The notes under the pieces: model-generated
Database searches by the model: none
Told to the model about the DNA's origin: nothing
Seen by the model: only the letters and a program-made list of their open reading frames with translations
In this document: positions 28,530-57,304 of the stretch, in pieces
Numbering within the stretch: the first letter of the stretch is position 1
How the letters are laid out: each line of letters starts with the position of its first letter
Source: Candidatus Omnitrophota bacterium
GTDB taxonomy: Bacteria; Omnitrophota; Gorgyraeia; Duberdicusellales; 4484-171
Length of the DNA stretch: 64,000 nucleotides
Direction: 5' to 3'
NCBI GenBank assembly: GCA_024231025.1
Contig: JAAEQW010000327.1
Location: 16,022 to 80,021 of the forward strand
Made by a program: the position numbers and the translations under genes

Positions 28530-31500
28530 TTAATCACAGAAAGCCAAATCTCTATTTCTTTGGCGTTCAATACTGATAATTTCAAATGTAAACCCGCCGA
28601 AATCGTTAATATCAAATTCGACTGCGTTCGGGATAAAATTATTTATTCCTTCTCCTTGCACATCTATGTTTAATTTATTCGGATTAAAATCGATGCCGCC
28701 GGGGATACCCTTAGAGTGGGCGCCGACTATCCCGGCGGCTTTTGTCGACGCTTTTGAAGACGAGCGGACGTAAATTTCTTTTACCTGCGCCTCATAGGCT
28801 TTTTTGCGCTCAGTCAACTTCTCTTGATCAAAAACTGGCTGATACTCTTCATTGTGAACAACTACTCCGGGCATTGTCCGTAATGAAAATTCTCTTTGCT
28901 TAACTAGCTTAAGACCTAAATCTATATTATCCGGATCATAATTACGAATGATCAATAAGCTTGGCCCGCCTTTAACCGAAAGCTCGTGGTGCTCAAATTC
29001 TCCTCCCTTTGAAGAGAAAAAATCTCCAAGATCTTCATTGTGCTGTAAACTAAGACCTGCTAAATCAACAAATGCCACACCATTAGGTTTTAAAACACGC
29101 TTGATCTCTTCCAACACAAAAACCTTATTCTGAAGATAAGTAGCTACTGCTGGCCCTAAAAATACTACTTCAAATGACCTATCTTTGTAAGGAAGCCCAT
29201 AACTAACATCGGCGGTAATATGGCCTCGCTGCATTTTTTCAACAAACTTGTGCGCTTGCTCTAACGAAAGCTGTCCAACTCCTTTTGTCTCTGCCGCCTG
29301 CTCATCAATAACTGCTTTTAAACTTTCTGCTGAATGAAGATAGTTTTCTTTAGAGATTGCGCTAACGCTATTTAGATGCTTATAACGCGAAAGAAGATCA
29401 TAGACAATTTTTCCTCGGCCAACACCAATACATAAAACATTTTGCGCGCGATTTAAATAGGGCGATATACCAACGGTAATGTCGTTTTGGAAATCTTCAA
29501 TAAAACTATCCAGGCCGCGACCAACATTCTCCTCTCTATAAATTGGTTGCTCAAGTTTTAGAAGCGCCTGGACCCTCTTGATGCCCGGCCGACATCTTTC
29601 AATTAAGGCTTGACCGCGAGAAGTGGATAAATGTTGCTGGGCTGCTTTGTCGTATTCAAAAATAGCTGCACTACCTTCATCGGCATAGGAACCCCTGCGC
29701 ACAATTAATTCAGCAATCCCGTGAGCAATTGTTTGCGCTGATGCGCCGTCATGAACATAAACGATTTTTCTCCTGCGGCCCGTATGTTCCTGATGGCAAA
29801 CTCCTTTTTTATCTTTGTATAAATAACCTCGACCTTCAGTATCAAGAACAATGATCCTAACCTCTCCAATTTCCTCCGTGGAAACAATAATATCCGGTTT
29901 AAGTTTAAGATCATCTTGCGGCAACCAAGAGCTCTTCCCTCCAGCAACTAATTCTCTAAGTTCAATGATTCTTTCCTGATACATCTTACTCTGAACTTCC
30001 GGCCGCTGGGCAATAAGCCTAAAGATCTCTTTATGGAAAGGTGCCTGTTGGGCTATGCCTTGGTCGGAGATGGCGTAGCTTTGTGCCGGCACCAAGATGT
30101 TAGCCTGCTCGATCAAATCGGACCCAGCAGCTGCAAAAGGCATAACTTCTCCAAAATCAGGTATTTTGCGCGCAGCAGGATAGTAAATGATTTTTTCCGT
30201 TGCCACGAGTTCTTTTTTGATTTGAGGGTGTTGGCGCCAGTTGAGCATCCCCTCGATTTCTTCTCGGGAAAAAGTTAAATTGATAAAGCTTTCATCTTCT
30301 TTTAATTCTTCAATACGGTTTTGCCTTTTCGTTACCTCTTGTTTTTGCGGTTGCGCAATTGGAATTGTTAGATCAAAGGTTCGAACTAACAACAGCAAAA
30401 CCAAATCTTCATAGGCCTGGATGAATTTTTTTCGTTCATTTTTATCCTTTATTTTTTCTAAAATTTCTTTTCTGGTTTCCAAATAATTTAAACCGTCTAA
30501 GATTCTCTCGATACTTCCTTTTCTTTGCAACAAAGCATTCACCTGACCGGAAACTAAATTAGCGTGAATTTTTTCCGTTAGCGCCGAAAAGAAACCCGGA
30601 AAAAATGGGCTAGTAATTCCTAATCGTTGTTCAGCAATAAGGTAGATACCAAAATCCGGATCACCGATTTCGTGAGAAACAGAAATATTTTCTTCTTCAT
30701 TTTGATCACGATAAATATTATTTAATTTTTTTATGGCTCGAACTTTAATTTTTCGAACCCCCTCTCGAGTTGAATAAAAATACTCTTTCGCGATTCGAGC
30801 TGAGGGAATTTCGCACTCCTCTTTTGAACCATTAGTGCCAATTTCTTGTAAAACTTGTCTGCTCACACCCTTCCCATAATGCAATTTTAATACCACCCGC
30901 TCCTGAATTGTTAATCTCGCCAAAAGTTTAGATGAATACTGCTGGTTCAATAAAATCTCGTGTATCTCTACCGGAGAAGACACCTTTGGTCTAAACCTCT
31001 CTTTATGGACTACCCCTTTTCTTTCTCCTACTAAAGTCTCAAAAGAAAGAGCGGGAAAAAAACTACGAAACTCTTTTAAGTGCTTAATCTTTTCCTTTAG
31101 GGTAGCGGGAGGGTCCGTGTTAATCTCTTGGGCTATTTCTTCCAAGGTCGGTCGCCGGTAATCGCCACCCTCGCGCAATCGCTGAAGAATCTTTTTCTGC
31201 GCAGCTTCAGTGTCATGACTTAAGCGTCGAAAATGTTCGGGCATTTTCAAGGCATAAAGCGAGCAGTGAAGCAAGAAATTAACCATCTCTTTCTGCATCT
31301 TTATATGGGAGTAGGTCGTAAAAAGAACACCCTTGCGCCAATCAATTTTATCTACTGCGATCGATAAACCTAAATTCGCGGCTGCAATTAACTCCTCTTT
31401 CACGATATGCCTATTTTTACCTTGATCAGCAAAGATTCCCGCTGTTTGAGCTGCCCAGCGTAAATGCCCGCCAACAACGCACTCCTTAATTCTCCCGTAT

Positions 31501-34500
31501 CTAGCCGTGGTCTTTGAGTCAACTTTTTTTCTAATCGCTTCTGCTTCAGACAAAAGTAAAACTTCTTCAGCACGGCTTAACTTAAAATCAGAAAGAAGCG
31601 CTTTTCCTTGCAAATCATATGTCACCTCTGATCGATAGCGACTAAGGATATTCTCTACTTTTTTGTCGCGCTTTTGAAAAAACTCACCACTTACAATAAA
31701 CCGATTATCCCGCTTTCCATCCTCACTGATCTGGCCAAACCCCAAATCCGCCCCTTGCTTGATTTGCCAAAGCGGTTGAAAAACTGCCTCGATTGCTTTT
31801 CTTGGTATTCCTTTGGCACTATTTTTAGCGCAATCCATCATTGAAAATAAACCATTACGAAACAATTCAAGTTCAATCGCAACTTGCGCGGTTAACTCTT
31901 TTTCTTTATCGGCAAGCTTTTCGGCTTTTTCGTGATACGTTTTAATAGCGGCAACGTCTTCTTCTTGGCGAATATACTTGCCCTGGACATCATAGTTTTT
32001 TGCGCGAGCACGGAATTCAGTAATTTCATGAGTAATTTGCGCAGCAGTTACTCCTTCATGAACATAAACACGCCTGCGTTCTCTTCCAAGATGGCCGTGA
32101 TGCTTAGTGTCTTTTTTATCTTTGTATAAATAGCCTTGGCCTTTGGTGTCAAGGATAACAACTTCAACATCGCCAATTTCGGTCGGAATTGTAAAATCAA
32201 TATTGATTGGCAAATCCTGATCCGGTGCAATTCTTTCGTCCCCCTCAACCTTCACCCGTAACTCTTGGATTTTATCTTTCAGCCCTTTGCCTTGCAGTTC
32301 CGGTCGCTGGGCAATAAACTCAAAAATCTCTTTATGGAAAGGTGCCTGTTGGGCGATGCCTTCGGTGGAGATTGCGCCAACTGATTCGATTTTTTGCAAG
32401 TGCAATTGAGGTTGGAAATCAATCGTAGCAAGGGTTTTTGGAAGTTTACCCGGTAACACAATGTTCAGCCTCTGCGCCAAGAACAAGTTAAGCGCTCTGG
32501 CGCGTTCGCGGCGAGCCTCTTTCATTTGTTTTTTTCCATTATAAGAAAAAGAGTCTTTTTTACCATTGAGAAAATCAAATTTCATTGACGCTTCTTGAGC
32601 AGCTTCAAAAACCCTCTCTCGTGATAATAAATCTCTTTCTATCTTATCTTCGATCGCGGCAACTAAAAGAAGAAACGTCGCGCTTTCCATGCAAATATTC
32701 TCCTTGAACGTCTCGATTAAAAATAAATCTATATTTGTGTCAAAACAAAAATTATTCTTGGCAATTGTTTTCATTATTTCTGGTCGATCAAAAGTTAAAA
32801 TCAAATAAGAAAACATATCTTTTTCTTCTTCGGAAAGTGAAATAGCATTAGTTTTTGTTTCCGCACGATATTGCTTCATAAACTGAGGCATTATCATTTT
32901 TATTTCCTCATAATTTATTGCCTGTCTGTCTAGTCCAAAAAGAGACCCGATATCTTCTTGTGTCCATCCTAAAATTCTTAACTTTAAGACTACTCTTCTT
33001 CTGCCTGGCTTTACCCTGGCTAAAACGCGAAACATCTGTCTAGCCCTCTCCCAAAGCATTACATCACCAAAAGGAGACAAATTTCTCGAAGGCACTAAAT
33101 CTTTACGAGTTAGCGCTGTTTCTTCGCTAATTGAAGCGTCTAGCGGAACCGCCGAAGAATACATCTTTTCAACGGCAACAACCTGCTCTGCTGTGACTTT
33201 GCTTTCTTTCGCAACTTGCTCTATTGTTGCTTTTGCACCTAAGCCTTTTCTTGCATTTTTTATGGCATAGATTTTGTCGGTGTGCTTTCTATTAACCGGA
33301 CCGCCTTGTTCATCAAAAGCATTTCTCATTTTTCCATTGGTTGATCGCTTTATAAAACTGGCAAATAGGGCTTCACCGTTTGGGTCAAATTTCTTTTTTC
33401 GCATCACCCGTAATACTTCTAGCTCGCCTACAGCAGCTAGATCATCAATATGAGTTAATTCCAAGTTAATTTTTCGCGCACGCCATATAAGCAATTTTTT
33501 CAGCGAACTAATTACACACGCCTCGATTTCTTTTTTGAGACGATTATCTGCAGTTGAATAATATACAGTAAAAAGAATTTGCTCTTCTTCTCTGTTTAAA
33601 GCTTCTCTAAGATAGGCCTCATTGGGATGATCCGAGGTTTTGCGATCGGCGAGAATTTGTTCGGCTTTCGTGCGCAGGCGCATGTTTCCTTTGCTTTTCT
33701 CATCTGATGCGCCTACTGCACCCCCTGTATGTGCACCTCCAAAATTTTTTGTGCCCGAAGTAGTAGGAAATTTTAAAGTAAATGTAGTCCCTTTGCCAAG
33801 GGCACTTTCGATTTCGATTTTTCCTCCGACATTGTCCATTACCTTTTTAACAAAATAAAGGCCCATCCCTGTGCCGCCAAGGCGCCCGGTAAAACCTTTT
33901 TCAAATAACAAACTATAAATATCTCCGTCGCTTGCCTTTTTGCCTTTGGCTACTATTCTTTGTATTCTTTCTAAAACATCTTTCTCGATTTTATGCACAG
34001 AAACTTCGGACTCGTTATCGGTGGAAATTATTTCTTGGGCTTTCTCTAATATTTTTTCTTTATCAATCCCCACACCAGAGTCGCTTATCCGCACTATCTG
34101 ATGCACTTGCCCAGCTTCGGTTTGGCTCTCAATGGTTACAGCGACTTCTTTAACGTGAGCTGCCTGCTGAGCGTTGATAAACAAATTAAGCATCATAATG
34201 ATAAAGCTATTCGGACTCACCGCAATAATCGATTCTTTGTCGTTATCTTTTTTAAGATTAACCTCTAGTCCAATTCCGGCAACCATCTCAGCTGCCAAGT
34301 CAACTAACGGCGCCAACACTGCATATCCAAGTTGTTTTTGCCTAAGCTCAGAAACAAATTTTCTAAATCGTTTAAGCGAAACAATCGCCTGACGATTTCG
34401 TTTAGTGTTAACAATCTCCCCTCTGGTCAATCCAAGTTCCTTTAAAAATTCTTTCGGCACCCTTTGTTTATATTGTGATGCCCTTTTATGAAGACCAATC

Positions 34501-36434
34501 GCTTCAGACAAAATCTCTTCAATCAAAACAAAAAGCTTTGCGGTTAAATCCCCGCGTTTCTCCAGCGAAGCCGTCTGGGTCAAATTCTGCGTTGCTACCC
34601 ATAATCCGCTAAGCTGCATCCTTTCTTTTACTAGTTGCTTTCCTGCATCATCGTGCTCAAACACTTCGTTGTAATAATCAATTGCCTTAAACACAACCGT
34701 CATCGTGTTTGCAATAAGATGAGTAAAGTCCCGCATTTTTATAAGCTCACTTGAGATATAGCCGCTATTTTCTCTATTCTGTGTTGTTCCTTCTATTTGT
34801 TTAAGAATTTCTCTTTTCACGCGTATGTACCATATTTGCTTTTGAATTTCCTCGGGACGCTCTTTGCTGATCGCTTCTTGTATGTTCCTGAAATTCTCTT
34901 CAAAAAACGGCTGATTGCGCCTAACGATGTCGGCCCTTGATAGATTTCTGATTACACTGCTTTGGCGAGAATAAGCTGAAGTAAAAGTTACAGTTCCAAA
35001 AAAGCTTTCATCGGGTATATTTTCAAGTATAGTTTTTAAGAATACCGACTTGGCAGTTGTTCTGCCAGAAGTCTTTTTCCCCTCGATGTTTAGCGCACCT
35101 AGCTCAGCGGTCATTTTAACTGGTTTTGGCACCTGTTTGTCACCTGAAACAACTTCTACTGTTTCGGCAATTTCACTGGCAAAAAATCCGCCGGAAAAAT
35201 ACTTACGATTAACGTGTTTATTTAGAATTTCGTCAAAATCCCTTCGAATATAGTTGTACACACCTTTTTTGTAGGCCTCTAGGTACTGATTATAAATTTT
35301 TTCTTTTATTTGGGGGTCCGTGCCTTCAATACCTTTGGTTTTGTTTTTACCGATATATATTTTGTCTAATAGGTGTGTGGTTAATTCGTCTTCCGGGGAC
35401 ACGTACCGTTCTCGGCCTTCGGCCTGCGCTTTCGGTACATGTCCCCGTAGGCTGTCAACTGAACGGCGAAGCCGTTGCTTAAACCAGGTTGCAAGAATCA
35501 AGGCATCGTAAATTTGGCGTAGGTAAGCGAACTGTTTACCATTGTTTATTTCCTCTTCGATCATCGGAAGGATAATCTCTTTCGCGATTTGGAATGATAT
35601 ATTGCTAGAGGGCACGGCACGCCGTGCCCCTACGATATTTAAAATAGGGACTGTCCCCTCTTCTGCCAGGGATTGATCTTTGGTCGGCGCCTGTCCCTCC
35701 CCTACGAATTGGTCTATGGTCTCTGGTCTATGGTCTCTGGTCTGATTACGTTGCTGTGCAACGTAATCTTCCTCCATCATCACTTTGAGATGATTATCAC
35801 CCAGAGTTGCCCTATCTCCTTGTTCATACACAATTGCTCTCTCAGGTACAATCCAAATTTTGTTAAAAGTGTTGATCGCAACATTGCTTGTGCCATAAAG
35901 CTGGTACGCTTTGTTGTGCACTTTTTTCCAGAATTGTTTTCCCAATGGGTTATCTGGATAAGTTAAAGAAGCCAGAAGCTGCTTTAGGATGTAGTCTTCC
36001 CCTAGAAGATCTTTACCCATATCAGTTAAACCTAGTCCATGAGCAACAACCGTATCCTTCTCATAAGGCGAAAGGTTAACCCAGAAATCTTCTTCGGGAA
36101 TGGTTAACGCAGATAAAAAGTATTTTATTAACCTTTGGCCCTCTGTTCTCAATTCTTTATCGCTATGGTTTGAATCGCCTTCACTTAATATGAAGTCAAA
36201 TTTGAATGGGTTGTCGGCGTAAAGCTTAATCCCCTTTAAGGATAAAGGGTTATATCTAGCGGTCAAGCCAATCAATTCTGTTGGCGCAGGCATATATGGC
36301 AGTGCTGAGGCATAGCCTGCTGAGTCTTTTGCCAAATAAACCCCAATGGTTGAGGCTATAAAGGCAGCCAGAATAAAGAATGCTACCATCCTAAACGGAG
36401 CACTAGCTCGTTTCTTACATAAATATAGGGTCAT
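28530..36434 (-). CDS. Giant (2634 aa) membrane-anchored multidomain protein. It carries the N-terminal domain shared with two paralogs, two sigma-70-like modules, an HATPase_c domain, an internal 120-aa duplication, and a class I SAM methyltransferase-like domain.
   Basis: N-terminal transmembrane helix. Conserved WVNLSPYEKD domain. FTTYSHIKMQKEMVNFL and FASFIKRSTNGKMRNAF region-2-like segments and HTH region-4-like segments. HATPase G-box GGTGMGLYFVKK (~33750-34150). Methyltransferase motifs VLCIGVGRG and LKPNGVAFV (~28950-29460). Confidence 0.7.
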   Translation of the reverse strand: MTLYLCKKRASAPFRMVAFFILAAFIASTIGVYLAKDSAGYASALPYMPAPTELIGLTARYNPLSLKGIKLYADNPFKFDFILSEGDSNHSDKELRTEGQRLIKYFLSALTIPEEDFWVNLSPYEKDTVVAHGLGLTDMGKDLLGEDYILKQLLASLTYPDNPLGKQFWKKVHNKAYQLYGTSNVAINTFNKIWIVPERAIVYEQGDRATLGDNHLKVMMEEDYVAQQRNQTRDHRPETIDQFVGEGQAPTKDQSLAEEGTVPILNIVGARRAVPSSNISFQIAKEIILPMIEEEINNGKQFAYLRQIYDALILATWFKQRLRRSVDSLRGHVPKAQAEGRERYVSPEDELTTHLLDKIYIGKNKTKGIEGTDPQIKEKIYNQYLEAYKKGVYNYIRRDFDEILNKHVNRKYFSGGFFASEIAETVEVVSGDKQVPKPVKMTAELGALNIEGKKTSGRTTAKSVFLKTILENIPDESFFGTVTFTSAYSRQSSVIRNLSRADIVRRNQPFFEENFRNIQEAISKERPEEIQKQIWYIRVKREILKQIEGTTQNRENSGYISSELIKMRDFTHLIANTMTVVFKAIDYYNEVFEHDDAGKQLVKERMQLSGLWVATQNLTQTASLEKRGDLTAKLFVLIEEILSEAIGLHKRASQYKQRVPKEFLKELGLTRGEIVNTKRNRQAIVSLKRFRKFVSELRQKQLGYAVLAPLVDLAAEMVAGIGLEVNLKKDNDKESIIAVSPNSFIIMMLNLFINAQQAAHVKEVAVTIESQTEAGQVHQIVRISDSGVGIDKEKILEKAQEIISTDNESEVSVHKIEKDVLERIQRIVAKGKKASDGDIYSLLFEKGFTGRLGGTGMGLYFVKKVMDNVGGKIEIESALGKGTTFTLKFPTTSGTKNFGGAHTGGAVGASDEKSKGNMRLRTKAEQILADRKTSDHPNEAYLREALNREEEQILFTVYYSTADNRLKKEIEACVISSLKKLLIWRARKINLELTHIDDLAAVGELEVLRVMRKKKFDPNGEALFASFIKRSTNGKMRNAFDEQGGPVNRKHTDKIYAIKNARKGLGAKATIEQVAKESKVTAEQVVAVEKMYSSAVPLDASISEETALTRKDLVPSRNLSPFGDVMLWERARQMFRVLARVKPGRRRVVLKLRILGWTQEDIGSLFGLDRQAINYEEIKMIMPQFMKQYRAETKTNAISLSEEEKDMFSYLILTFDRPEIMKTIAKNNFCFDTNIDLFLIETFKENICMESATFLLLVAAIEDKIERDLLSRERVFEAAQEASMKFDFLNGKKDSFSYNGKKQMKEARRERARALNLFLAQRLNIVLPGKLPKTLATIDFQPQLHLQKIESVGAISTEGIAQQAPFHKEIFEFIAQRPELQGKGLKDKIQELRVKVEGDERIAPDQDLPINIDFTIPTEIGDVEVVILDTKGQGYLYKDKKDTKHHGHLGRERRRVYVHEGVTAAQITHEITEFRARAKNYDVQGKYIRQEEDVAAIKTYHEKAEKLADKEKELTAQVAIELELFRNGLFSMMDCAKNSAKGIPRKAIEAVFQPLWQIKQGADLGFGQISEDGKRDNRFIVSGEFFQKRDKKVENILSRYRSEVTYDLQGKALLSDFKLSRAEEVLLLSEAEAIRKKVDSKTTARYGRIKECVVGGHLRWAAQTAGIFADQGKNRHIVKEELIAAANLGLSIAVDKIDWRKGVLFTTYSHIKMQKEMVNFLLHCSLYALKMPEHFRRLSHDTEAAQKKILQRLREGGDYRRPTLEEIAQEINTDPPATLKEKIKHLKEFRSFFPALSFETLVGERKGVVHKERFRPKVSSPVEIHEILLNQQYSSKLLARLTIQERVVLKLHYGKGVSRQVLQEIGTNGSKEECEIPSARIAKEYFYSTREGVRKIKVRAIKKLNNIYRDQNEEENISVSHEIGDPDFGIYLIAEQRLGITSPFFPGFFSALTEKIHANLVSGQVNALLQRKGSIERILDGLNYLETRKEILEKIKDKNERKKFIQAYEDLVLLLLVRTFDLTIPIAQPQKQEVTKRQNRIEELKEDESFINLTFSREEIEGMLNWRQHPQIKKELVATEKIIYYPAARKIPDFGEVMPFAAAGSDLIEQANILVPAQSYAISDQGIAQQAPFHKEIFRLIAQRPEVQSKMYQERIIELRELVAGGKSSWLPQDDLKLKPDIIVSTEEIGEVRIIVLDTEGRGYLYKDKKGVCHQEHTGRRRKIVYVHDGASAQTIAHGIAELIVRRGSYADEGSAAIFEYDKAAQQHLSTSRGQALIERCRPGIKRVQALLKLEQPIYREENVGRGLDSFIEDFQNDITVGISPYLNRAQNVLCIGVGRGKIVYDLLSRYKHLNSVSAISKENYLHSAESLKAVIDEQAAETKGVGQLSLEQAHKFVEKMQRGHITADVSYGLPYKDRSFEVVFLGPAVATYLQNKVFVLEEIKRVLKPNGVAFVDLAGLSLQHNEDLGDFFSSKGGEFEHHELSVKGGPSLLIIRNYDPDNIDLGLKLVKQREFSLRTMPGVVVHNEEYQPVFDQEKLTERKKAYEAQVKEIYVRSSSKASTKAAGIVGAHSKGIPGGIDFNPNKLNIDVQGEGINNFIPNAVEFDINDFGGFTFEIISIERQRNRDLAFCD
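29715..30075 (-). repeat. Intragenic duplicated module, copy 2 (GIAQQAPFHKEIF...YLYKDKK...YVHDGA), within the giant gene
   Basis: Protein-level repeat of ~120 aa. The DNA retains a near-identical 50-nt stretch (ctttatggaaaggtgcctgttgggc...) at 30020-30075 and 32328-32385. Confidence 0.7.
32025..32385 (-). repeat. Intragenic duplicated module, copy 1
   Basis: Same ~120-aa module as 29715-30075. Confidence 0.7.
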
Positions 36435-36685: not shown

Positions 36686-39600
36686 TTAATCTAGTAGCGG
36701 TCTAATTGATTTAATATCACGAATACCGAGAACTTTAATCCCCGCATTATTAAAAAATTCCGGATTAATATTGAAAGTTTTACCCATCCAGTCTTCAGAA
36801 GATCCTGTTACATTTAAAGCATTGTCTAAGCCTTCAATTTTTACACCACCGTGGGCACTGCTAAGACCTGCGGAGCTTCTTCGTGTTGATCCGCCACTAC
36901 CATTATTGAGAAGCCCTGAACCTTGTTTTGTCCCAGAAGGCCCTTGACCTCCACCATTGAAAGGATCACCTGGATCATCATCGCTAGAAAGAACACCGCC
37001 AATTTGATCAGCATCAACCGCAACGAAGCGCGAATCTTTACGCATCGACAGCTCGTGCAGCCGCGCTTCAGCCCTCGCCTGGACCTCGCTGTCCTCCTTG
37101 GCAAAAGCATTTTCTGCAACAATCACTCGCGAAAAATCTGTTCCTAACAGTTCATACAACTCAATTAAAATTGACCCTCGCACGTATGTTCCGTTGGCTT
37201 CCTCTCCAAAGCGCTTTGAGTCCTCCCCAATATCATATCCCAGCACGTGATCATAGCGGCTTTCGGCGTTCATGTCTAGCGCTAAGAATATTCCTTCACA
37301 CCCTAGTGTATCATCCATTGCGTCTTGCAACGCGCTAACAACATCATAAAGTTTAGACCGCTTTGTATTGTCCAGCGCAACTAACGTTTTCTGGGCCGTA
37401 GCAGCCGCAACCTCTAACCCTTTAACTGATGCCTCAACGCTAGAGTAGCCTGCGGCAACCAAAGAAATTTCATTAACTGCCAATCCCGGAAAATCACTCT
37501 GAGCCTGCTGCGGAGAAAGAGCCAAGGTAGTATAGACATTTTGTGCGGCTGGCGAAGCAGAACGCCCTTGCGATAAGTCGCTATTGCCATAGACATATGT
37601 TAAAACCTTTTCCCGCTCCCAAACTGTGGCTTCTATTGTTTGTAGCACCCCCCCTGGTTTAGTAGCTAAATCAATAATTTGATCGGCTCGATTAACTTGA
37701 TCGGCTTGATCGCCTCGATCAGCTTTTTTGTTAGCATAGGTGTACTCACGCAATTCAGGGGCATTACCTGAGGCACGCATATGGAACCGATCGCCATAAC
37801 TGTCCCACATTACGATCCCATCAATAAGATGATCGCCAAAGGCCAAATGAACAATTTCTCCAAAACCCAATCCTGCGTGATAAAAATTTTCCATCTTTTT
37901 GCGTAAATTAATCGCATCAGCAACAAGTTCGTCCTGGTCATCATAAGAAACGGTGGAAGAATCATCTTCTCCCCGTAAGATAACAGTCATTGTTCTGTCG
38001 GCATCATTAAACATAACCTCGGAAACATTGTGACGATGTAAACTATATTCCTCATGAATAAGCTGCCCCGTACGCTTTTCTCCCGGTAAAACTGGTAGTT
38101 CGTGGATCAATCCTGCATTATCTTCGTAATTGTCAAGCTCTCCAACAAAAAATTCTGAAACATTTTTGTTATGTTTTATTGCCTCTAAAAAAATAATCAT
38201 CGGCGTTGGCAGTGCGTCGCGGGTGATTAGTTCATCTAACGGCTGACCATTGGGTAATATTATGTTGGGCCCAATAAAAATCCCGCCGTTAACCTCCTGA
38301 CCAATGACCTTAAGGTTCGGGTTCTTGCGCAACATCCATCGCATTAAATATTTATGGTAGGGTGAACCGACCGAACAGTGTTTCACCACAATACCGTCTT
38401 TTGCTAACTGATCATCAACGTCTTGATTTCCGGTTAGCGATTGGACAACAGCATCCACTTTCAGGGCCCGCGCCACCGGCACGATTGTTACGTCGCCGCG
38501 CCAAAATATGCCATTTTCATCAATCACCATCGAGCGATCACCATCGCCGTCAGCCGAAGTTTCACCCAGCAAAATAACGTCCTCACCGTCAACCCTAATC
38601 ACGGTTTTGCCTTCTACCTCACGAGCACCATAGTCTTTCTTAACCGTGCGCATATCCTTTTTGATGTCAGCCAAATGCTCTTTAGTCATGTTTTCGGTAT
38701 CTAAAGCAATGAAAGAGTTTGATCGGCGACGCCGCTCAATAACTTTCATCCCTAAGGCTCGATAAATATCCACATGCTCTTGAACTGCTACCGTTGAATG
38801 GCCCCAATAAACAACGGCATACCCTTTAAAAGGTTGAGGGTTGTCCGCAGTTGAAAAAGCATCAACAAAGCGCTGAATATAAATTTTCTTAGCCTCATCA
38901 TTAACTTTGATCGCATTAATGTCTACGTTGGCTCCCGGCTTAAATAGGCCCCTAACTCCAAAAATAGAATCCGTCGCCGCCTGCTTGTAAAGAACTTCTC
39001 GTCGGGCTTTAACCGCAGCGATAATACCCTCTTTATCGGAAACGCCATCGTCTTTTTCTTCGGCCTCATTAAGCACCTCACCATCTTTACTATAAAGCTT
39101 TAATCCGTTAAATTTACCTGCCGTGTGACTTCCGGTAATCATGATCCCCGGCAAATTATATTTCTGACAATAGTAGGCCATAATTGGCGTTGATACCTCA
39201 TCTAGAAAATCAACTTCTACCCCTAAATCACGACAAGCAGTGGCTATCGCATTAGCAAACACTGGCGAGCTTCTGCGAAAATCCATAGCTAACACCATCT
39301 TCTGACCGGGAACTATCGCTCCATTATTATCAACCGCTAATTGCGCTTTGCTCACTAGCCAGTCAGAAAAACCACTGGTTATGGCATAAGGCTCAATGTC
39401 CTTCATCACATCTACCAGCCCACGAAAACCACTCGTGCCCATGCCGGTCGGCTTTGGAGTATAGTCCATTTCTTGAAGCAAACAACCGGGAGGATACACT
39501 GCGGGATCAAGCTCCTGATCAGAAAAGCTTTTGCGATCAATCTCAGCGGCTAAAGTAACTCGCTGCACGCGCTGCTCAAAAGGTATTTCTAAGCTTGGAT

Positions 39601-40813
39601 TAGCTATCATTTGTGCTCCCGGAAAAATATATTCTCCTTCAGACCCGTCACTACCGCTAGGTCCATCATTTGGTGGCCCGTCATCTGGATTCGAAATCAT
39701 CGTAGAATCAGCTACTTGCGCATTACCTTCAAAAGAAACAGCCGCAAGATCCTCCGCTATTACAGGAACTGCGTCGCTTATTTCTGGCAAATCCTCTTGA
39801 GTGTATCCACCAGAGAAATAACGCCGTTTGATTCTTCTATTTGTTGCTGGGTCAACCTCTTTTTTGATATAATCATACAGTTTTCCCTCAAACGCCTCAA
39901 CATAAAGATTATAAACCTTTTGTTTAATTTCCTTATCAGAAATCGCGATTCCATCAACTTTTGCCTGATTAATAAAGTGCTTATAAAAAGAATCTTGAAA
40001 CTTCTTTTTAAACCACGTAGCCAATACCATCGAATGGTATATTTGACGCAAAGTTGCAAAGTTTTTTCCTTGGTTTATTTCGTTATTAATTTTCGGTAAA
40101 ATTACCTGGCGCAGAGCATTGGAGGTTATCTCGTCTACTTCATCTGTCCGATCAATGCCTGTAGCATTTTTGCGAGCAAGAAAGTCTTCTTCCAATACCG
40201 CTTTTAGTTGTGCGTCGTTGATTAAAGCAACGTTTTCGTGCTCATAAACTTCAGCTGTATACGGAGTGATCCAAATTTTATTAAATGTGTTTATCGAAAC
40301 TTTTGTTGTTCCAAGGGTGTCGGTTAAGTCTTGATAAATTTTATCCCAATAATTTTTTCCGGCTTGACTATCAGGGCAAGTAATTGACGCCGATAGCTGT
40401 TTTAAAATATAATCCTGAGAAAGCAAGTCACGCCCTAGGTCAGTTGCGCTTAATTCATCTGGAAGAATTCGATTTTGCTCATATGGCGATAAGTTAACCC
40501 AAATATCCTTCTCGGCCATGGTAAGGCCAGCAAGAAAATAATTAATCAAACGCTTTGCGTCTTTTTCACTTATCTTCTCCTTGCTTCCGGTGTCAATAAT
40601 GAATTCAATATGCAAAGGGTTTTCGTAATCCAATCGCAAACCTTTTAGTACCGGAAAGGAGTAATTCTCCGACAACGGCACCATTGTTTGAGGACCAGGC
40701 AAGTCAAGAGTGTTTGCAAAAGTGACGAAAGGCGTTTGAATTAAAAGGGATACGACAAAAAAGAAAAGAGTTACGAAATTCAACTTAACGGATTGAGTGC
40801 GTAAATGCACCAT
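36686..40813 (-). CDS. Giant (1375 aa) secreted paralog with the conserved N-terminal domain, a phosphohexomutase-like domain and a Gly-rich C-terminus
   Basis: Signal peptide. N-terminal domain shared with the 2634- and 1084-aa proteins. GTSGFRG and TGSHTAGKFNGLKLY resemble the PGM/PMM GTSGLR and TASHNP motifs (~38800-39450). Confidence 0.65.
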   Translation of the reverse strand: MVHLRTQSVKLNFVTLFFFVVSLLIQTPFVTFANTLDLPGPQTMVPLSENYSFPVLKGLRLDYENPLHIEFIIDTGSKEKISEKDAKRLINYFLAGLTMAEKDIWVNLSPYEQNRILPDELSATDLGRDLLSQDYILKQLSASITCPDSQAGKNYWDKIYQDLTDTLGTTKVSINTFNKIWITPYTAEVYEHENVALINDAQLKAVLEEDFLARKNATGIDRTDEVDEITSNALRQVILPKINNEINQGKNFATLRQIYHSMVLATWFKKKFQDSFYKHFINQAKVDGIAISDKEIKQKVYNLYVEAFEGKLYDYIKKEVDPATNRRIKRRYFSGGYTQEDLPEISDAVPVIAEDLAAVSFEGNAQVADSTMISNPDDGPPNDGPSGSDGSEGEYIFPGAQMIANPSLEIPFEQRVQRVTLAAEIDRKSFSDQELDPAVYPPGCLLQEMDYTPKPTGMGTSGFRGLVDVMKDIEPYAITSGFSDWLVSKAQLAVDNNGAIVPGQKMVLAMDFRRSSPVFANAIATACRDLGVEVDFLDEVSTPIMAYYCQKYNLPGIMITGSHTAGKFNGLKLYSKDGEVLNEAEEKDDGVSDKEGIIAAVKARREVLYKQAATDSIFGVRGLFKPGANVDINAIKVNDEAKKIYIQRFVDAFSTADNPQPFKGYAVVYWGHSTVAVQEHVDIYRALGMKVIERRRRSNSFIALDTENMTKEHLADIKKDMRTVKKDYGAREVEGKTVIRVDGEDVILLGETSADGDGDRSMVIDENGIFWRGDVTIVPVARALKVDAVVQSLTGNQDVDDQLAKDGIVVKHCSVGSPYHKYLMRWMLRKNPNLKVIGQEVNGGIFIGPNIILPNGQPLDELITRDALPTPMIIFLEAIKHNKNVSEFFVGELDNYEDNAGLIHELPVLPGEKRTGQLIHEEYSLHRHNVSEVMFNDADRTMTVILRGEDDSSTVSYDDQDELVADAINLRKKMENFYHAGLGFGEIVHLAFGDHLIDGIVMWDSYGDRFHMRASGNAPELREYTYANKKADRGDQADQVNRADQIIDLATKPGGVLQTIEATVWEREKVLTYVYGNSDLSQGRSASPAAQNVYTTLALSPQQAQSDFPGLAVNEISLVAAGYSSVEASVKGLEVAAATAQKTLVALDNTKRSKLYDVVSALQDAMDDTLGCEGIFLALDMNAESRYDHVLGYDIGEDSKRFGEEANGTYVRGSILIELYELLGTDFSRVIVAENAFAKEDSEVQARAEARLHELSMRKDSRFVAVDADQIGGVLSSDDDPGDPFNGGGQGPSGTKQGSGLLNNGSGGSTRRSSAGLSSAHGGVKIEGLDNALNVTGSSEDWMGKTFNINPEFFNNAGIKVLGIRDIKSIRPLLD

Positions 40814-48391: not shown

Positions 48392-48455
48392 CATAACAAA
48401 TCACTGCACCTGACCAAAAAGCTGCGCTTTTCGGCAGGTGAGTTCTGATGTTATG
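48392..48455. repeat. REP-like structured repeat, copy 3
   Basis: cataacaaatcactgcacctgacc...ggcaggtgagttctgatgttatg. Confidence 0.65.
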
Positions 48456-48484
48456 ATATACAAAAACAAGGACAAGGAGAACAA

Positions 48485-49327: not shown

Positions 49328-49330
49328 AAT

Positions 49331-49392
49331 CATAACAAGGCACTTCAGCTGACCAAAACCTGCGGTTTCGGCAGCTGAGTTTGAATGTTATA
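49331..49392. repeat. REP-like structured repeat, copy 4
   Basis: cataacaaggcacttcagctgacc...ggcagctgagtttgaatgttata. Confidence 0.65.
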
Positions 49393-49399
49393 ACAGATA

Positions 49400-49795
49400 A
49401 TGAAAACAAAATATAAATTCACTTTTTGGGGTATAATCTTCATTTTGTTTGGAACCTTTGGCTTTTTGGCAAACACTCTTTGTTGTTATTTCTATTTCTT
49501 CGAGAAACAACTACCTACCGGCAAAATGGGATCTTTTTTAAGCTTTATGTGTGCACCATCCACTCATCTGTCTTTATCTTCTGCTTGGCCAAGTCCTTGG
49601 AGTATGTGCACATTAATGGTTGCTACTACTTTAATATTTTCCTTATTTATTTGGATAGGATTATTTTCATTAAAAAAAGATGGCTCACATTTAAAGGCAG
49701 ATATGAATCCTGAATTAAAGCAAGCTCTTGAAAATAATGATTTTGAAAAAGCGGCTTTATTGCGTGACCAAGCAAAAAGAAAACAAGACATCTAA
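49400..49795 (+). CDS. Hypothetical membrane protein
   Basis: Two or three hydrophobic segments. The 3' end overlaps the next ORF, so the boundaries are uncertain. Confidence 0.3.
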   Translation: MKTKYKFTFWGIIFILFGTFGFLANTLCCYFYFFEKQLPTGKMGSFLSFMCAPSTHLSLSSAWPSPWSMCTLMVATTLIFSLFIWIGLFSLKKDGSHLKADMNPELKQALENNDFEKAALLRDQAKRKQDI

Positions 49796-50342
49796 CAAAT
49801 CACTACAGCTGACTAAAACCTGCAGTTTTGTGCAAGTGATTAAGGAAAATATATTTGGTGAAATAAAAAATAATGGGATATCCGTAGGGGCCGACGGCTG
49901 TCGGCCCTCTATAGATGTAAAATTAAATGAATTTGGTTTAATTGTTAATGACGAATTAAAAAATTCTGAAATTATTCGAAACGAAATAAAATTGAACGAT
50001 CATGTAATTATGCCAAATCATATACATGGAATTGTTATAATTCAAAATAATATCATAAAGGGCCGACAGCCATCGGCCCCTACGGATAAAATTAATCAAA
50101 AACAATCATTATCATTATTTGTCGCCGGTTTTAAATCCTCGGTAACAAAACGCATCAACACCTTACGTAATACACCAGGGAATCCTGTTTGGCAAAGATC
50201 GTTTTATGACCATATTATCCGCAACAAAACATCATTAAACAAAATACGTGAATATATAACCAATAATCCCATAAATTGGCAATTTGATGTTGAAAATCCT
50301 GACAGAATTGGTAAGATGAAATCAGATACAATTACCGTATAA
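49728..50342 (+). CDS. REP-associated tyrosine transposase-like, second copy, with an embedded GTAG-palindrome pair flanking the HuH-coding segment
   Basis: HuH motif NHIHGIV. Catalytic-Tyr region WQRSFYDHIIRNKTSLNKIREYITNNPINWQF. The C-terminal 45 aa is nearly identical to the first copy. The true start is probably downstream of 49728. Confidence 0.55.
   Translation: MKIMILKKRLYCVTKQKENKTSNKSLQLTKTCSFVQVIKENIFGEIKNNGISVGADGCRPSIDVKLNEFGLIVNDELKNSEIIRNEIKLNDHVIMPNHIHGIVIIQNNIIKGRQPSAPTDKINQKQSLSLFVAGFKSSVTKRINTLRNTPGNPVWQRSFYDHIIRNKTSLNKIREYITNNPINWQFDVENPDRIGKMKSDTITV
49792..49850. repeat. REP-like structured repeat, copy 5 (partial), lying inside the 5' part of the second RAYT ORF call
   Basis: ctaacaaatcactacagctgactaaaacctgcag... 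Confidence 0.5.
49876..50083. repeat. 24-bp terminal inverted GTAG-palindromes flanking a 160-bp AT-rich segment that encodes the HuH motif of RAYT-like gene 2
   Basis: gtaggggccgacggctgtcggccc at 49876-49899 and gggccgacagccatcggcccctac at 50060-50083. The two are reverse complements with one mismatch. Confidence 0.7.
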
Positions 50343-50465
50343 CAACGCACTGCCACGTGAGCCCTTCGGGCAACGTGGCCTACGTCCCGCAAAAACGGGA
50401 CTGCGGCAGCCGAAGTCGCGTTTGACAACAAAGTTGTCATCACGCGATGAGTTTGAGTGTCATAC
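50338..50465. repeat. REP-like structured repeat, copy 6 (long, multi-hairpin; a UUCG tetraloop gcccttcgggc inside the stem ccacgtg/cacgtgg)
   Basis: tataacaacgcactgccacgtgagcccttcgggcaacgtgg...gtcccgcaaaaacgggac...gcgtttgacaacaaagttgtcatcacgc. Confidence 0.65.
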
Positions 50466-50558
50466 CCAATAAAAACAAATTTGATAAATGTCAGATTTAA
50501 CAACCAGAGGTCGGGAGATTAAAGAGTCAGGTTGGCAAGTTGTAACCCTTTTGTTATC

Positions 50559-54049: not shown

Positions 54050-57000
54050 TTAATTATCAACGTTATCAGTAAAATACGAGGCATTGGCAGGAAAAACTCG
54101 ATAGACAATTGGACTAGCCCTAATAAGAGGAGACATCTCATAATCTTTATTCTTAACTAAATCATTAAACCTTGTTGCCTCTCCTTGAGTTTGCAAATCC
54201 CACATAGCAGAATCAAAATCAATTCCACCAGTAGAGGTTTTTGAATCGGTCAAAGGCAAGCCTTCTTGTTTTATGCCTTTGTTTTCAGCAAAAGCATTGA
54301 AAATATAAGCCTCCTTGCCAGAATACACTATAAGTTGCTTCGTTGTTGGTCTGAAAACTAAGCTCCATGGATGTTTTCCGGAATTAACTTCTACGAATTT
54401 TAATGTTTTGATTCCGAATTTCCTTGCTAAGTATTCTTCTGACTCATGTGCAAACCTCATCGCTCCTCGCATGTTATTGCTTAAATATATAGCCTCTTTC
54501 TCTCCATCACCCAAGTATTCAATATATTTTCTAAATGGCCTTTTCCCCCATAGCCTAGGTGCCTCACGTTTAAAATGGAATAAAGCGTAGTTGTCCGTGC
54601 ACTTATCCCGTATTAAAACCGCATGACACCCAGAAAAGCCATGGCTTCTCATAGGAATCAATCCTTCACTAAGCATCCCTTCATTTTCCTGAACCCATAT
54701 TGTCTCAAATTTATTTTCCAATATATCCAAACCTTCTTTACCGGATAAAACATCAGCAACAAACACCCTTTCTCCACCTTCTTCAGTCAAAAAGTCTGTC
54801 TGTTTATCGGGCTTTATTATCTCAAAACTACGAAACTCAATAATAGCCCGAGGAACATCTTCTAAGCTTAATCCCATCAAGGAAAAAGAGTTATTCCCCA
54901 TCCAAGAATCAAGAAAATCGTTTATATCTTCTCCCTCAGGATATACTTTATAGTACTCATCAGAAACAGCTTTTTTAACAATCGCAATGGCTTTATCTTT
55001 CACCTCTCCCTGCAATTCTGGATTCGTGGCTGTGATACTTAATATTCTAAAAGCACTTTGAGAAGAAAACTCTTCCCCACGCTTAAACACCTCTCCTATC
55101 GCCTCAACAATTTTGGGTGTTACGGCTTGAGGATTTTCCAAAGAAATATCCTTTAATACCGTATCTAAAACATAACTAGACGTACTTTCGACGTCGGAAT
55201 GCAGAGCTTCGATAAAAATATCATAAACTATTTCTTCATACCCCGGTCTTCGGATGAAATATTTTAATTTGTTACACGCTCCCTGAATAACCTTTTCATT
55301 TCTGTGGTATAACAACTCTTTAAGAAAATAAAGAGCTTTATCGAGATCAAAATGAGCTAAGACTTCTATATCGCCAAAAATACTTCTATCTAATTGCTCG
55401 AGGTTTTGATGTTCTATTAAATAATATAGCCTCTTCCGAACATTTGAAAGAATCTTCCTATGATCATCTGAAAGAATCTTCTCTTTTTCACGAATTACAG
55501 CTCGCCCAACCTCCCATAGCCATGCCCTAAATCCTGGCACTCTCTGGGAAACATCACGCTCAAAACTTGCTGCAATTCCAGCATCTTCTTGGGTCGATCG
55601 AAATTCCATCCTTCTAATCTCAGCAATGCTCCCAGCATGTTCACCCCCTCTATCTTCAGCCACCTTAATGGACGATTCAAAAGCACTCATTCCTTGACCA
55701 TAATTTTGGCCCTCAAACTCTCCTCCTTTATGCCAGCGAAGTTCTTCTTTTTCACGTTCTTTTTGCTGTTTGATCTCACCCTGAAAACCAACTATCACGC
55801 CTTGCCCGCCATCAGTTCCAGGCAATAATAAATGTATTACTTTAACGCCCTGGCCGTCTGCTCCCTTCATTACTTCTTGAACAACTTCTTCTCCTAAAGT
55901 AGTGACTTTAAGTCTGTCGGAAAGGATATAAATAATATTTCCATCGCTATCAATATCTTCGGTTATCAAATGTCCTTTGCCATTGTCTCGTCTTTTAAGA
56001 TACTTAATTACCGCCATCATAATGTCATCTTCTTTAGCCTCTTTTGGCAGACTCATAAATTCTGGTTCTTTACTTAGAGCAATGCGGTCTAAAACACCAT
56101 AAAGATGATCTAACTTCTTGGCTACGTCAATATATACCTGAGCAACAAACGCCTCACCATGGGTTTCATGTTTTATATCATTTTCTAAAACGGCTGACGA
56201 CACATTTTGCTCTTGAATAGCATCTGGATTATGGTGGGTATATCCACCAGAAAAGTATTTTCTACTAATCGCCTTATGCTGATACAAGTCATATTCTTTC
56301 TTTATGTAATTATAAACACCAGCCCTATACGCTTTAACATATTGCTGGTAAATTTCATTCTTTAGCTCTTTATCTTCAACGTCCACACCACTAACTTCAC
56401 CTTTATCAGCATAAGACTTACCCAACAAACCTTCCTTTAAATTACGTTTAAACCATGTTGCCAAAACCATAGAATAAAAAGCCTGTCGTAGTTTTGCAAA
56501 GTGCTCACCTTGATTAACCTCCCTCTCAATTTCGGGCAAAATTATTTCTTTCATAATTGAGGAAGAAACATCATTTATTTCCTTACTATTCTGAATATCC
56601 GACTTAACAGTTTTTGCCTCAAGGTTATACAAATTCTTTTTAAAAGCTAAATAATCACTTTCCAACATGACTTTTAAATGTCCCTCTACAACAAAAGCAG
56701 TATCACCATTCACATGGATTAAAACTTTCTCAGGCATAATCCATACTTTGCTAAACGTATTGATGGGCATATCAACTGCACCGTATAATTCATTTACTTT
56801 GGCATAAACTCTATCCCAGAACTTTTTACCTAATTCACTTTCAGGATAAGTTAAGGAAGACATTAATTGCTTAAGAATGTAGTCTTGTGCTAGTAGTTCT
56901 ACTCCCATTTCAGTCATGCCAAGCTTTTCAGGAATAACTCTATCTTTTTCGTAAGGCGAAAGGTTAACCCATAAATCTTCCTCTGGAATTGCTAAAGAAG

Positions 57001-57304
57001 CTAAAAAATACCTCACAAGCTTAGATGTTTCGACTTTTAAATTATTTTCATCAATATCAGCATCGCCAGTATCTACGATAAAATCAAATTTTAAAGGGTT
57101 ATCAGGATAAACTTTCATTCCTTTCAAAACTGGGTAAGAATGAGGTTTAGAGCTTAAAAGCAATTGTATCGGTTGAGGCAAATCACAAACTGCTGGTTCA
57201 AAAAACTTAGAACGCAACAACCCTGATAGAATAGCAGCCCCCAGGATAGCCACTGCTACAATTGCTGCGATTAACTTAAATGAAATTGTTCCTTCTCTAA
57301 ACAT
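54050..57304 (-). CDS. Giant-family paralog 3 (1084 aa) with a conserved N-terminal domain. The rest is uncharacterised.
   Basis: Transmembrane/signal N-terminus. N-terminal domain about 45% identical to the other two (WVNLSPYEKDRVIP). C-terminal GGIDFDS tail motif shared with the 2634-aa protein. Confidence 0.65.
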   Translation of the reverse strand: MFREGTISFKLIAAIVAVAILGAAILSGLLRSKFFEPAVCDLPQPIQLLLSSKPHSYPVLKGMKVYPDNPLKFDFIVDTGDADIDENNLKVETSKLVRYFLASLAIPEEDLWVNLSPYEKDRVIPEKLGMTEMGVELLAQDYILKQLMSSLTYPESELGKKFWDRVYAKVNELYGAVDMPINTFSKVWIMPEKVLIHVNGDTAFVVEGHLKVMLESDYLAFKKNLYNLEAKTVKSDIQNSKEINDVSSSIMKEIILPEIEREVNQGEHFAKLRQAFYSMVLATWFKRNLKEGLLGKSYADKGEVSGVDVEDKELKNEIYQQYVKAYRAGVYNYIKKEYDLYQHKAISRKYFSGGYTHHNPDAIQEQNVSSAVLENDIKHETHGEAFVAQVYIDVAKKLDHLYGVLDRIALSKEPEFMSLPKEAKEDDIMMAVIKYLKRRDNGKGHLITEDIDSDGNIIYILSDRLKVTTLGEEVVQEVMKGADGQGVKVIHLLLPGTDGGQGVIVGFQGEIKQQKEREKEELRWHKGGEFEGQNYGQGMSAFESSIKVAEDRGGEHAGSIAEIRRMEFRSTQEDAGIAASFERDVSQRVPGFRAWLWEVGRAVIREKEKILSDDHRKILSNVRKRLYYLIEHQNLEQLDRSIFGDIEVLAHFDLDKALYFLKELLYHRNEKVIQGACNKLKYFIRRPGYEEIVYDIFIEALHSDVESTSSYVLDTVLKDISLENPQAVTPKIVEAIGEVFKRGEEFSSQSAFRILSITATNPELQGEVKDKAIAIVKKAVSDEYYKVYPEGEDINDFLDSWMGNNSFSLMGLSLEDVPRAIIEFRSFEIIKPDKQTDFLTEEGGERVFVADVLSGKEGLDILENKFETIWVQENEGMLSEGLIPMRSHGFSGCHAVLIRDKCTDNYALFHFKREAPRLWGKRPFRKYIEYLGDGEKEAIYLSNNMRGAMRFAHESEEYLARKFGIKTLKFVEVNSGKHPWSLVFRPTTKQLIVYSGKEAYIFNAFAENKGIKQEGLPLTDSKTSTGGIDFDSAMWDLQTQGEATRFNDLVKNKDYEMSPLIRASPIVYRVFPANASYFTDNVDN

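Follow-up and report, generated by a model that had tools for sequence, protein, structure and literature searches.

The 64-kb window examined here, that is, the whole stretch of 64,000 nucleotides analysed from contig JAAEQW010000327.1 of a Candidatus Omnitrophota bacterium, encodes three long proteins, A, B and C, that belong to what appears to be an undescribed, Omnitrophota-restricted protein family of about 8,400 clusters with two unannotated end modules. One of these modules is a conserved N-terminal domain (the N-domain), which follows a hydrophobic segment at the start of the protein, and the other is a short C-terminal tail. Multi-enzyme exported or membrane proteins of Omnitrophota are already known; term searches of Omnitrophota papers and preprints, together with library searches, returned no mention of the N-domain or the tail. 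We consider the chances to be about even that the family consists of Sec-exported carriers in which the N-domain and the tail jointly sort cargo, either to the surface of the cell or into a host or prey cell.

The N-domain and the family it defines

Genes A (28530..36434), B (36686..40813) and C (54050..57304), all on the minus strand, encode proteins of 2634, 1375 and 1084 aa and together account for 15.3 kb, or 24%, of the window. An earlier note on this DNA had singled out these open reading frames (ORFs) as giant proteins that begin with a signal or transmembrane (TM) segment, and we found all three frames to be unbroken over 3.2-7.9 kb, each with a hydrophobic segment at its N-terminus. 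The product of A is identical to NCBI MCP4653411.1, annotated as a methyltransferase domain-containing protein, and that of C to MCP4653428.1 (GY858_08625), a hypothetical protein; both records lie on a 90-kb contig of a Candidatus Omnitrophica metagenome-assembled genome (MAG). Gene B was assigned to the family by BLASTP and by a profile hidden Markov model (HMM) of the N-domain.

An all-against-all BLASTP comparison of every ORF in the window detected an N-terminal region common to A, B and C only, the three pairs being 33-40% identical over 337-450 aligned residues (E 7e-71 to 4e-87). Identity to C over MAFFT-aligned columns of the N-domain is 45% for A and 41% for B. The domain spans 300-370 aa, in keeping with the shared region of about 350 aa described in the earlier note, and ends at a conserved RKYFSGG at aa 416 (A), 336 (B) and 354 (C). 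Its profile, running from WVNLSPYE to RKYFSGG, matched the N-terminus of all three proteins, at E 1.5e-155 in A (35187..36302, aa 45-416, with WVNLSPYE at aa 118 and lineage-specific insertions), 8.5e-143 in B (39806..40714, aa 34-336) and 2.3e-168 in C (56243..57184, aa 41-354). Scans of A, B, C and two small full-length members against Pfam and NCBIfam returned nothing for this domain, which had been said to fall outside any recognised family, and no fold relative was found in the PDB. An AlphaFold2 (AF2) model of the C N-domain predicted a mixed alpha/beta fold (predicted local distance difference test, pLDDT, 74; predicted template modelling score, pTM, 0.70).

An exhaustive search of 1.84 billion cluster representatives (clusters at 50% identity) with the N-domain profile matched 8,388 clusters at E<=1e-3, 8,010 at 1e-10 and 6,811 at 1e-30. 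The match list had a sharp edge with no distant relatives, and the domain always started within residues 1-64 of proteins of 420-5312 aa, nearly all of the matches listed being proteins of at least 600 aa. In a word-indexed search the C N-domain retrieved more than 1,100 proteins, nearly all of the named ones labelled Candidatus Omnitrophota, and 118 of 120 proteins among the matches listed had no precomputed Pfam domain. At least 587 loci encode the N-domain in GTDB when one genome is taken per species. All 79 GTDB loci that were fetched came from Omnitrophota MAGs or placeholder-named MAGs, and family genes occurred several per genome, frequently in tandem arrays. The family is lineage-specific, as the earlier note had supposed, and the window's own proteins are Candidatus Omnitrophica entries; the candidate phyla radiation, which had been mentioned alongside Omnitrophota, is not implicated. 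Many database members in the C N-domain match list are 320-570-aa fragments marked partial at contig ends, and a few were assigned to bins named Pacearchaeota, Heimdallarchaeota or Sciscionella, where their contigs measure 1.6-2.1 kb. Short-read assemblies are probably broken by the conserved N-domain, which is also placed in the wrong bins.

The source of the window is a short-read MAG, and the exact sequence of B is not in the protein collection, both of which would suit an artefact, the long ORFs being either chimeric assemblies or separate genes joined by read-through. We regard this as barely conceivable, given that the frames are unbroken and that A and C carry the family start and end modules at their two ends. 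An assembly chimera is also not indicated because the same start-to-end architecture, with signal and N-domain at the start and the tail before the stop codon, recurs in independent MAGs, where over 70 complete ORFs show it, some of them on contigs of at least 1 Mb.

Paired ends and unrelated middles

HMMs of the tail and of the N-domain were built from the family and scored among 868 ORFs (the 79 loci and the window). A tail module of about 65 aa with GGID[LF] terminates 71 of the 75 complete ORFs in the GTDB loci; its consensus reads GGIDLNPxxLxLQ(IKRDGxGxPLP)...IxGFxPVIINITPVxNLPxLLG, followed by 10-40 polar residues, and its conserved motifs are GGID[LF][NDT] and GFxPVI[IL]xIxP. The tail HMM matched A at aa 2577-2624 (E 5.5e-6 among the 868 ORFs and 1.7e-10 scored alone; tail at 28533..28706, minus strand, GGIDFNPNKLNIDVQGEG...GGFTFEIISIE) and C at aa 1020-1074 (E 1.4e-5 and 9e-10, respectively; tail at 54053..54247, minus strand, GGIDFDSAMWDLQTQGEA...SPIVYRVFPAN). 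In B the match was not significant (E 0.27), and its C-terminus (36689..36862, minus strand) keeps only a degenerate GGVKIEGLDNALNVTG...AGIKVLGIRDIKSIRPLL that is tail-like in position and pattern. The related tail that the earlier note had assigned to all three proteins is statistically supported for A and C and lacks such support for B; similarly, its first motif, GG[IV]DF[ND], stands, while its second, [FI]NINP.FF.N, proved to be a coincidence, the conserved second motif being GFxPVI[IL]xIxP. Compared with one another, the tails of the three proteins show only faint similarity (A against C, E 4e-4), and the reality of the tail is clear only at family level. Neither the tails of A, B and C nor canonical family tails (E<=1) matched anything in Pfam or NCBIfam, and a database-wide tail search was uninformative, returning only 16 short fragments.

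The two end modules are paired. Both were present in 77 of the 868 ORFs, and every ORF with a single module was truncated by the end of its locus, by an N-run or by a frameshift. The nearest N-domain neighbour shared the tail type in 82 of 82 cases, against a chance expectation of 74%, and N-domain identity averaged 62% between pairs with the same tail type and 55% between pairs with different types.

The middles follow neither end. Among 174 full-length members they were detectably similar in about 1% of pairs with N-domains 50-70% identical and in only 39% of pairs even at 80-90% identity, in a set that consists mostly of 50%-identity representatives and therefore under-samples close orthologues. 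The description of the family as cassette-bearing agrees with this. The nearest N-domain relatives of C (57-61% identical) have middles unrelated to its own except for a 150-aa stretch directly after the N-domain; the corresponding part of C (aa 380-550, 55655-56167, minus strand) is 30-33% identical to segments at the same position in L009:9875-16462 (aa 375-539), P0197 and P0225. This stretch hints at an optional third conserved module, present in a subfamily.

The middle of A contains a predicted GHKL (histidine-kinase-type) ATPase (33759..34199, aa 746-892; Pfam HATPase_c, 8.7e-17) that also matches histidine-kinase and CheA catalytic domains in the PDB. It is followed by a sigma-70-like module covering regions 3/4 (32913..33512, aa 975-1174), which is a weak match: NCBIfam TIGR02937 scored 4.8e-11 and 42.6 bits, just below its 42.9-bit cut-off, and Pfam Sigma70_r3 and r4_2 were also under their cut-offs. 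A second sigma-70-like module, with regions 2-4 (30702..31628, aa 1603-1911), is clearly RpoD/SigA/SigB-F-G-like (NCBIfam RpoD_Cterm 1.1e-20 and SigBFG 4e-15; PDB SigA/RpoD 1.6e-8). One copy of a 145-aa domain follows each sigma-like module (31947..32375, aa 1354-1496; 29640..30074, aa 2121-2265). The copies are 50% identical (E 3e-36), have no Pfam match and show the pattern GIAQQAPFHKEIF...VLDTxGxGYLYKDKK...VYVHxG. Towards the C-terminus lies a class I S-adenosylmethionine (SAM) methyltransferase core (29064..29261, aa 2392-2457; Pfam Methyltransf_11, 1.2e-5; PDB 8k76). All features of A, like those of B and C, are on the minus strand. The GHKL ATPase beside SigB/F/G-like modules is reminiscent of anti-sigma kinase/sigma pairs.

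The middle of B carries a phosphohexomutase of PGM/PMM/GlmM type (38255..39442, aa 458-853; Pfam PGM_PMM_I 8.4e-17, NCBIfam Arch_GlmM 2.9e-33, PDB 4hjh 2.8e-32). Both its phosphoserine loop, with the catalytic Ser-His (TGSH), and its metal loop, DGDGDR, are retained, and the domain is apparently active as judged from these residues. The 665-aa middle of C (54248..56242, aa 355-1019) matched no Pfam or NCBIfam family, and a sequence search with it returned C alone. The view that each protein carries a different enzymatic or regulatory middle was borne out for A and B; the middle of C gave no such assignment. Scanning those segments of A, B and C that had no assignment against Pfam and NCBIfam likewise gave nothing for the conserved ends.

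A Pfam survey (E<=1e-5) of 68 other full-length members widened this picture. It recovered complete PGK twice (E about 1e-105), enolase twice, GTP-PEPCK, PPDK-type PEP-utilising domains, PGM, UDP-glucose pyrophosphorylase, starch/glycogen synthase and GT2. Also present were phosphoribosyltransferase, CofD, NUDIX and methyltransferase domains, radical SAM with a B12-binding domain, SNF2/DEAD helicase, four response regulators, HATPase_c, PP2C, HEAT and ankyrin repeats and one LysM. Domains usual in extracellular proteins did not turn up in these 68 members, there being no glycoside hydrolase, protease, Ig-like, FN3, CBM or adhesin-repeat match. Judged by these matches, the cargo is made up of cytoplasm-type enzymes and regulators that are not normally exported.

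Conserved ends around hypervariable content, many paralogues and tandem arrays are also what a polymorphic toxin or competition system would offer, with a conserved trafficking domain, variable toxic modules and adjacent immunity genes. Here, however, the variable part is the middle and the C-terminus is conserved, the cargo consists of metabolic enzymes and regulators with no nucleases, deaminases or pore-formers, and no toxin family was among the cargo Pfam matches (the PADLOC defence library was not searched). Moreover, the three window members are followed downstream by Era, by gene A and by a hybrid histidine kinase, and not by small immunity ORFs, making such a system very improbable.

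Signal peptides, proposed docking and the export reading

About 93 family N-termini share a tripartite layout. A basic n-region with a mean net charge of +2.9 is followed by an h-region with a median of 18 residues, then by a proline and a small-x-Ala^Gln site (YAQ, HAQ, FAQ, AQA; ^ marks the putative cut) located 5-10 residues before an invariant LPxPG, the conserved pattern being Pro...[YFHL]A^Q. Charge is about 0 after the h-region. The predicted signal peptides of A (36303..36434, aa 1-44; basic n-region, 20-aa h-region, ASA^LPYMPAP) and B (40715..40813, aa 1-33; TFA^NTLDLPGP) fit this layout. The N-terminus of C (57185..57304, aa 1-40) has a 20-aa h-region and then DLPQP, with no clear AxA site, and C may be signal-anchored. 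A, B and C each have one strongly hydrophobic N-terminal segment; there is no other hydrophobic window in B or C, and the two others in A (aa 705-753) border the ATPase domain. No C-terminal TM-like segment was found in A, B or C, and family tails end in acidic or polar residues. Twin-arginine export was set aside because the S/T-R-R-x-F-L-K pattern was absent, by eye, from the n-regions. A lipoprotein signal considered for C (AVC^D) did not fit the lipobox consensus, and no lipobox was found among the 93 or so N-termini. The surface or secreted location proposed in the earlier note would follow from these classical Sec-type signal peptides and is at odds with the cytoplasm-type cargo.

That cargo, which is exclusively cytoplasm-type and cofactor-dependent, would be at home in membrane-tethered cytoplasmic scaffolds whose conserved ends mediate assembly or regulation and not export. 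The 20-residue h-region of C without an AxA site and the second hydrophobic segment after the N-domain in some members point the same way, and this is the reading preferred in a 2026 preprint for long proteins with TM segments only (10.64898/2026.06.07.730766). On the other hand, the charges around the h-region (+2.9 before, about 0 after) obey the positive-inside rule for an N-in/C-out orientation, the signal-peptidase-like site is conserved family-wide, a single N-in helix would leave the bulk of the protein outside, and 55 of the 75 members lack any further TM-like segment. We consider such scaffolds unlikely.

In a full-length AF2 model of a 681-aa member (P0262, 60 sequences) the middle was poorly predicted, with the 250 residues before the tail below pLDDT 50. 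The first tail motif (aa 621-650, GGIDMNP..IDIQ) was modelled as beta-strand with pLDDT 78, 93 and 69 per 10-residue block, and the invariant WVN became a strand, its 10-residue blocks scoring 69 and 77 as compared with 56-59 in the N-domain-only model. From this model we infer that the first tail motif may dock on the N-domain near WVNLSPYE.

On the carrier reading, A, B and C are old paralogues of a very large Omnitrophota-restricted modular family, and its architecture (Sec-type signal peptide, invariant N-domain of some 340 aa, cargo that is freely exchanged and, at the C-terminus, a module of some 65 aa) is observed repeatedly, as are the pairing of the ends and the unrelatedness of the middles. 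Sec would pass the whole polypeptide across the inner membrane by virtue of its signal peptide, and GGIDLN with its beta-strand would dock close to the invariant WVNLSPYE of the N-domain. N-domain and tail, joined in this way either in cis or head-to-tail in trans, would make up a single composite device for sorting or anchoring, and this would bring the cargo to the surface of the cell or into a host or prey cell to which the bacterium is attached. The cargo of the window would comprise the GHKL ATPase, two sigma-like modules and methyltransferase of A, the phosphohexomutase of B and the orphan domain of C, and the family as a whole would serve an epibiotic or predatory bacterium as its repertoire of effectors or carriers. 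A host or prey cell would be the only nearby compartment with ATP, sugar phosphates, RNA polymerase and Fe-S assembly. In published accounts, Omnitrophota are inferred to be ultra-small cells that depend on a host (PMC10066038), RNA from a cultured predatory member builds up in prey cells that have died (PMC13153191), and long Omnitrophota proteins with the same Pfam vocabulary mostly have predicted signal peptides or TM segments (10.64898/2026.06.07.730766). Export of the family fits an ultra-small, host-dependent lifestyle and RNA in dead prey. It also fits the reported secretion of glycogen enzymes and a phosphoglucomutase by chlamydiae.

A related arrangement would have the N-domain and tail of different molecules bind head-to-tail, in a donor-strand-like manner, to build a coat or fibre at the surface or in the periplasm that displays or stores the middles without delivering them. 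A tail beta-strand that becomes confident only when the full protein is modelled, obligatorily paired ends with a tail type that tracks the N-domain, the many paralogues per genome and the one LysM cargo are compatible with such a structure. Nothing favours trans over cis contact, though, no repeat, Ig-like or adhesin-type domains were found in the 68 members scanned, and ATP-dependent enzymes on display would lack substrates. A structural assembly of this kind seems to us quite improbable.

Several observations weigh against sorted export. The N-terminus of C resembles an anchor more than a cleavable peptide, and about 20 of the 75 members (about a quarter) have one to four extra hydrophobic segments, often directly after the N-domain. 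The tracking of the N-domain by tail type could result from shared descent alone, without functional coupling. In the structural model, the second tail motif, GFxPVIINITPV, lies below pLDDT 50; only pLDDT and secondary structure were used to read the docking, and the full-length and N-domain-only models differ in both sequence and alignment. Sec exports unfolded chains, and the cargo depends on ATP, nucleotides, sugar phosphates, RNA polymerase or Fe-S/B12 cofactors, which would not be present in a periplasm as far as can be expected. Finally, no conserved secretion or partner gene was found beside family genes in the 79 loci and the window. A dedicated co-occurring secretion or sorting system, which the earlier note had suggested looking for, did not emerge as a recurrent neighbour among the 868 ORFs, and the window itself contains no such gene. 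The recurrent neighbours were two-component genes, further family members and housekeeping genes (trpC, trpF, guaA, glmS, ABC-F, GT2, TPR, GGDEF).

Extra hydrophobic segments were seen in P0113 (aa ~395-420), L018, L041, L019, L077, L072 and others, that of P0113 resembling a second signal peptide (..LLFAATVSLLSSGTPAIAQE..). By these predicted segments the family may mix fully exported and membrane-spanning topologies, with cytoplasmic cargo in some members.

A more specific version of the carrier reading, which we put forward tentatively and hold to be rather doubtful, is that the ends and the signal mark substrates of an unrecognised, Omnitrophota-specific route that moves cytoplasm-type cargo, folded in the target, into the host or prey cell. 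The ends would act as a clasp, possibly removed at Gly-Gly. Gly-Gly occurs at both cargo boundaries (..YFSGG-cargo-GGIDLN..), and these sites could be processing sites. Glycolytic enzymes that yield ATP would be among the delivered cargo, as would sigma factors, helicases and radical SAM enzymes, and from its domain content the ATP-yielding set (PGK, PPDK and PEPCK with enolase) could be a source of ATP beyond the cytoplasm.

Genomic surroundings, known systems and significance

The surroundings of A, B and C are ordinary chromosome. Downstream of A lie Era and a tRNA methyltransferase gene, downstream of B lies gene A, another family member, and downstream of C a hybrid histidine kinase. Upstream of C, at 57590-63800 on the minus strand, a cluster of four tRNAs (Asp, Val, Leu, Cys), the only matches in an Rfam scan of the window, is followed by guanylate kinase, YicC, ParB and YidC, a gene set that suggests an origin-proximal chromosomal region. 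Cumulative GC skew declines steadily through the window. Further downstream of A, a fatty-acid/polyketide-like cluster (11692-21341, minus strand) contains two ketosynthases, a cyclase, an SRPBCC polyketide-cyclase-like protein, an SDR, an MFS transporter, a B12-binding radical SAM enzyme and an aldehyde:ferredoxin oxidoreductase. Between B and C, a 790-aa protein (41534-43906, minus strand) combines TPR, DUF3857 and a transglutaminase-like cysteine-protease core; it was considered as a possible processing enzyme for the family, but the recurrent neighbour clusters of the 79 related loci included nothing transglutaminase-like.

The same interval holds a plus-strand island with a GC content of about 0.35 (46567-50480). 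Two paralogous ORFs resembling IS200/Y1 transposases (RAYT-like, PNH[VI]HGI; 46567-47106 and 49728-50342) are 50% identical, 91% over their last 169 nt, and enclose small plus-strand ORFs. Between the island ORFs lie imperfect palindromes of 75-95 nt at about 47569-47645, 48392-48455 and 49332-49391, plus half-sites, each with an outer stem CATAAC...GTTATG and an inner stem CAGCTGAC; their single-stranded DNA folds gave z = -4.6, -4.0 and -2.7. In sequence and predicted fold they look like attC-like cassette sites of an integrase-less cassette array or REP/BIME elements of the RAYT-like genes.

The nearest biological relatives of the family are the long and giant multi-enzyme proteins of the same phylum (Archaeovorin-type, West-Roberts et al. 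2023, bioRxiv 10.1101/2023.11.21.568195; catalogue 10.64898/2026.06.07.730766), which mostly have a predicted signal peptide and/or TM helices and a suspected role in host or prey interaction. These proteins share with this family the cargo domains PF08241, HATPase_c, PGM/PMM, response regulator, radical SAM, starch synthase, HEAT, NUDIX and PPDK_N, and are roughly 10 kaa and above, with many TM helices and C39/S8 peptidase or dockerin domains. In contrast, the present family measures 0.6-5 kaa, has mostly a single N-terminal hydrophobic segment and carries two conserved end modules; Pfam and NCBIfam scans found no C39, S8 or dockerin domain in A, B or C. At 1.1-2.6 kaa, well short of the tens of kaa of the Archaeovorin and dockerin types, A, B and C have in common with those giants only the phylum and the cargo vocabulary.

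Other systems resemble the family in outline. MARTX toxins of Vibrio likewise place conserved N- and C-terminal regions around a variable cassette of effectors that act in the cytoplasm. Their arms consist of glycine-rich repeats, a type I secretion signal lies at the C-terminus, and they possess a cysteine protease domain and no Sec signal peptide, the effectors being delivered into another cell; in A, B, C and the 68 members, however, no HemolysinCabind, RTX or other MARTX feature was detected, and a Sec-type signal peptide is present. Cargo of T9SS, the Bacteroidota system for type IX secretion, typically hydrolases or adhesins, likewise combines a Sec signal with a short C-terminal domain (CTD, 70-100 aa) that marks unrelated proteins as one sorting class. 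The family differs from it in phylum, in its additional large N-domain and in its cytoplasm-type cargo; T9SS CTD models (Por_Secre_tail, TIGR04183) did not match A, B, C or canonical tails at E<=1, and the 64-kb window contains no PorK/L/M/N or SprA gene. TpsA and LapA also have a conserved N-terminal secretion or retention module after the signal peptide, LapA adding a C-terminal signal: the TPS domain follows the signal peptide, and the LapA retention module plugs or anchors at the outer membrane. Here the family showed no TPS or RTX Pfam match, its N-domain is predicted to be mixed alpha/beta and not beta-helix, and no TpsB or type I secretion system (T1SS) gene lies nearby.

The Autotransporter Pfam domain (type Va, a C-terminal 12-stranded beta-barrel) was absent from A, B, C and the 68 relatives, whose tail is only about 65 aa. 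Likewise, no NCBIfam model of sortase, exosortase or rhombosortase signals (LPXTG, PEP-CTERM, GlyGly-CTERM) matched, and the TM helix with a basic cluster that such signals place at the extreme C-terminus was not seen. At the level of sequence features, the family fails the testable defining features of MARTX toxins, T9SS cargo, TpsA/LapA, autotransporters, sorting signals and toxin/immunity systems. In Chlamydia, a member of the PVC superphylum, glycogen-metabolism enzymes and phosphoglucomutase have been reported as secreted type III substrates. This case of exported carbohydrate-phosphate enzymes is a possible precedent for the phosphohexomutase of B, although the Chlamydia enzymes are single-domain proteins with type III signals, no Sec peptide and no conserved end modules.

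Omnitrophota are abundant, uncultivated and ultra-small, and are thought to live on or prey on other cells. The two profiles give a searchable handle on a large part of the dark proteome of this phylum, and Sec signals before PGK, enolase, sigma factors and radical SAM enzymes will be surprising for specialists in secretion and in the PVC bacteria. If the ends are a sorting device, the effector repertoire would be identifiable in any genome by profile search, and this would raise the question of how and why sigma factors and glycolytic and Fe-S enzymes are exported. If the proteins are instead cytoplasmic, classical-looking Sec signals would be misleading in this phylum, and all topology-based readings of its giant proteins would be affected.

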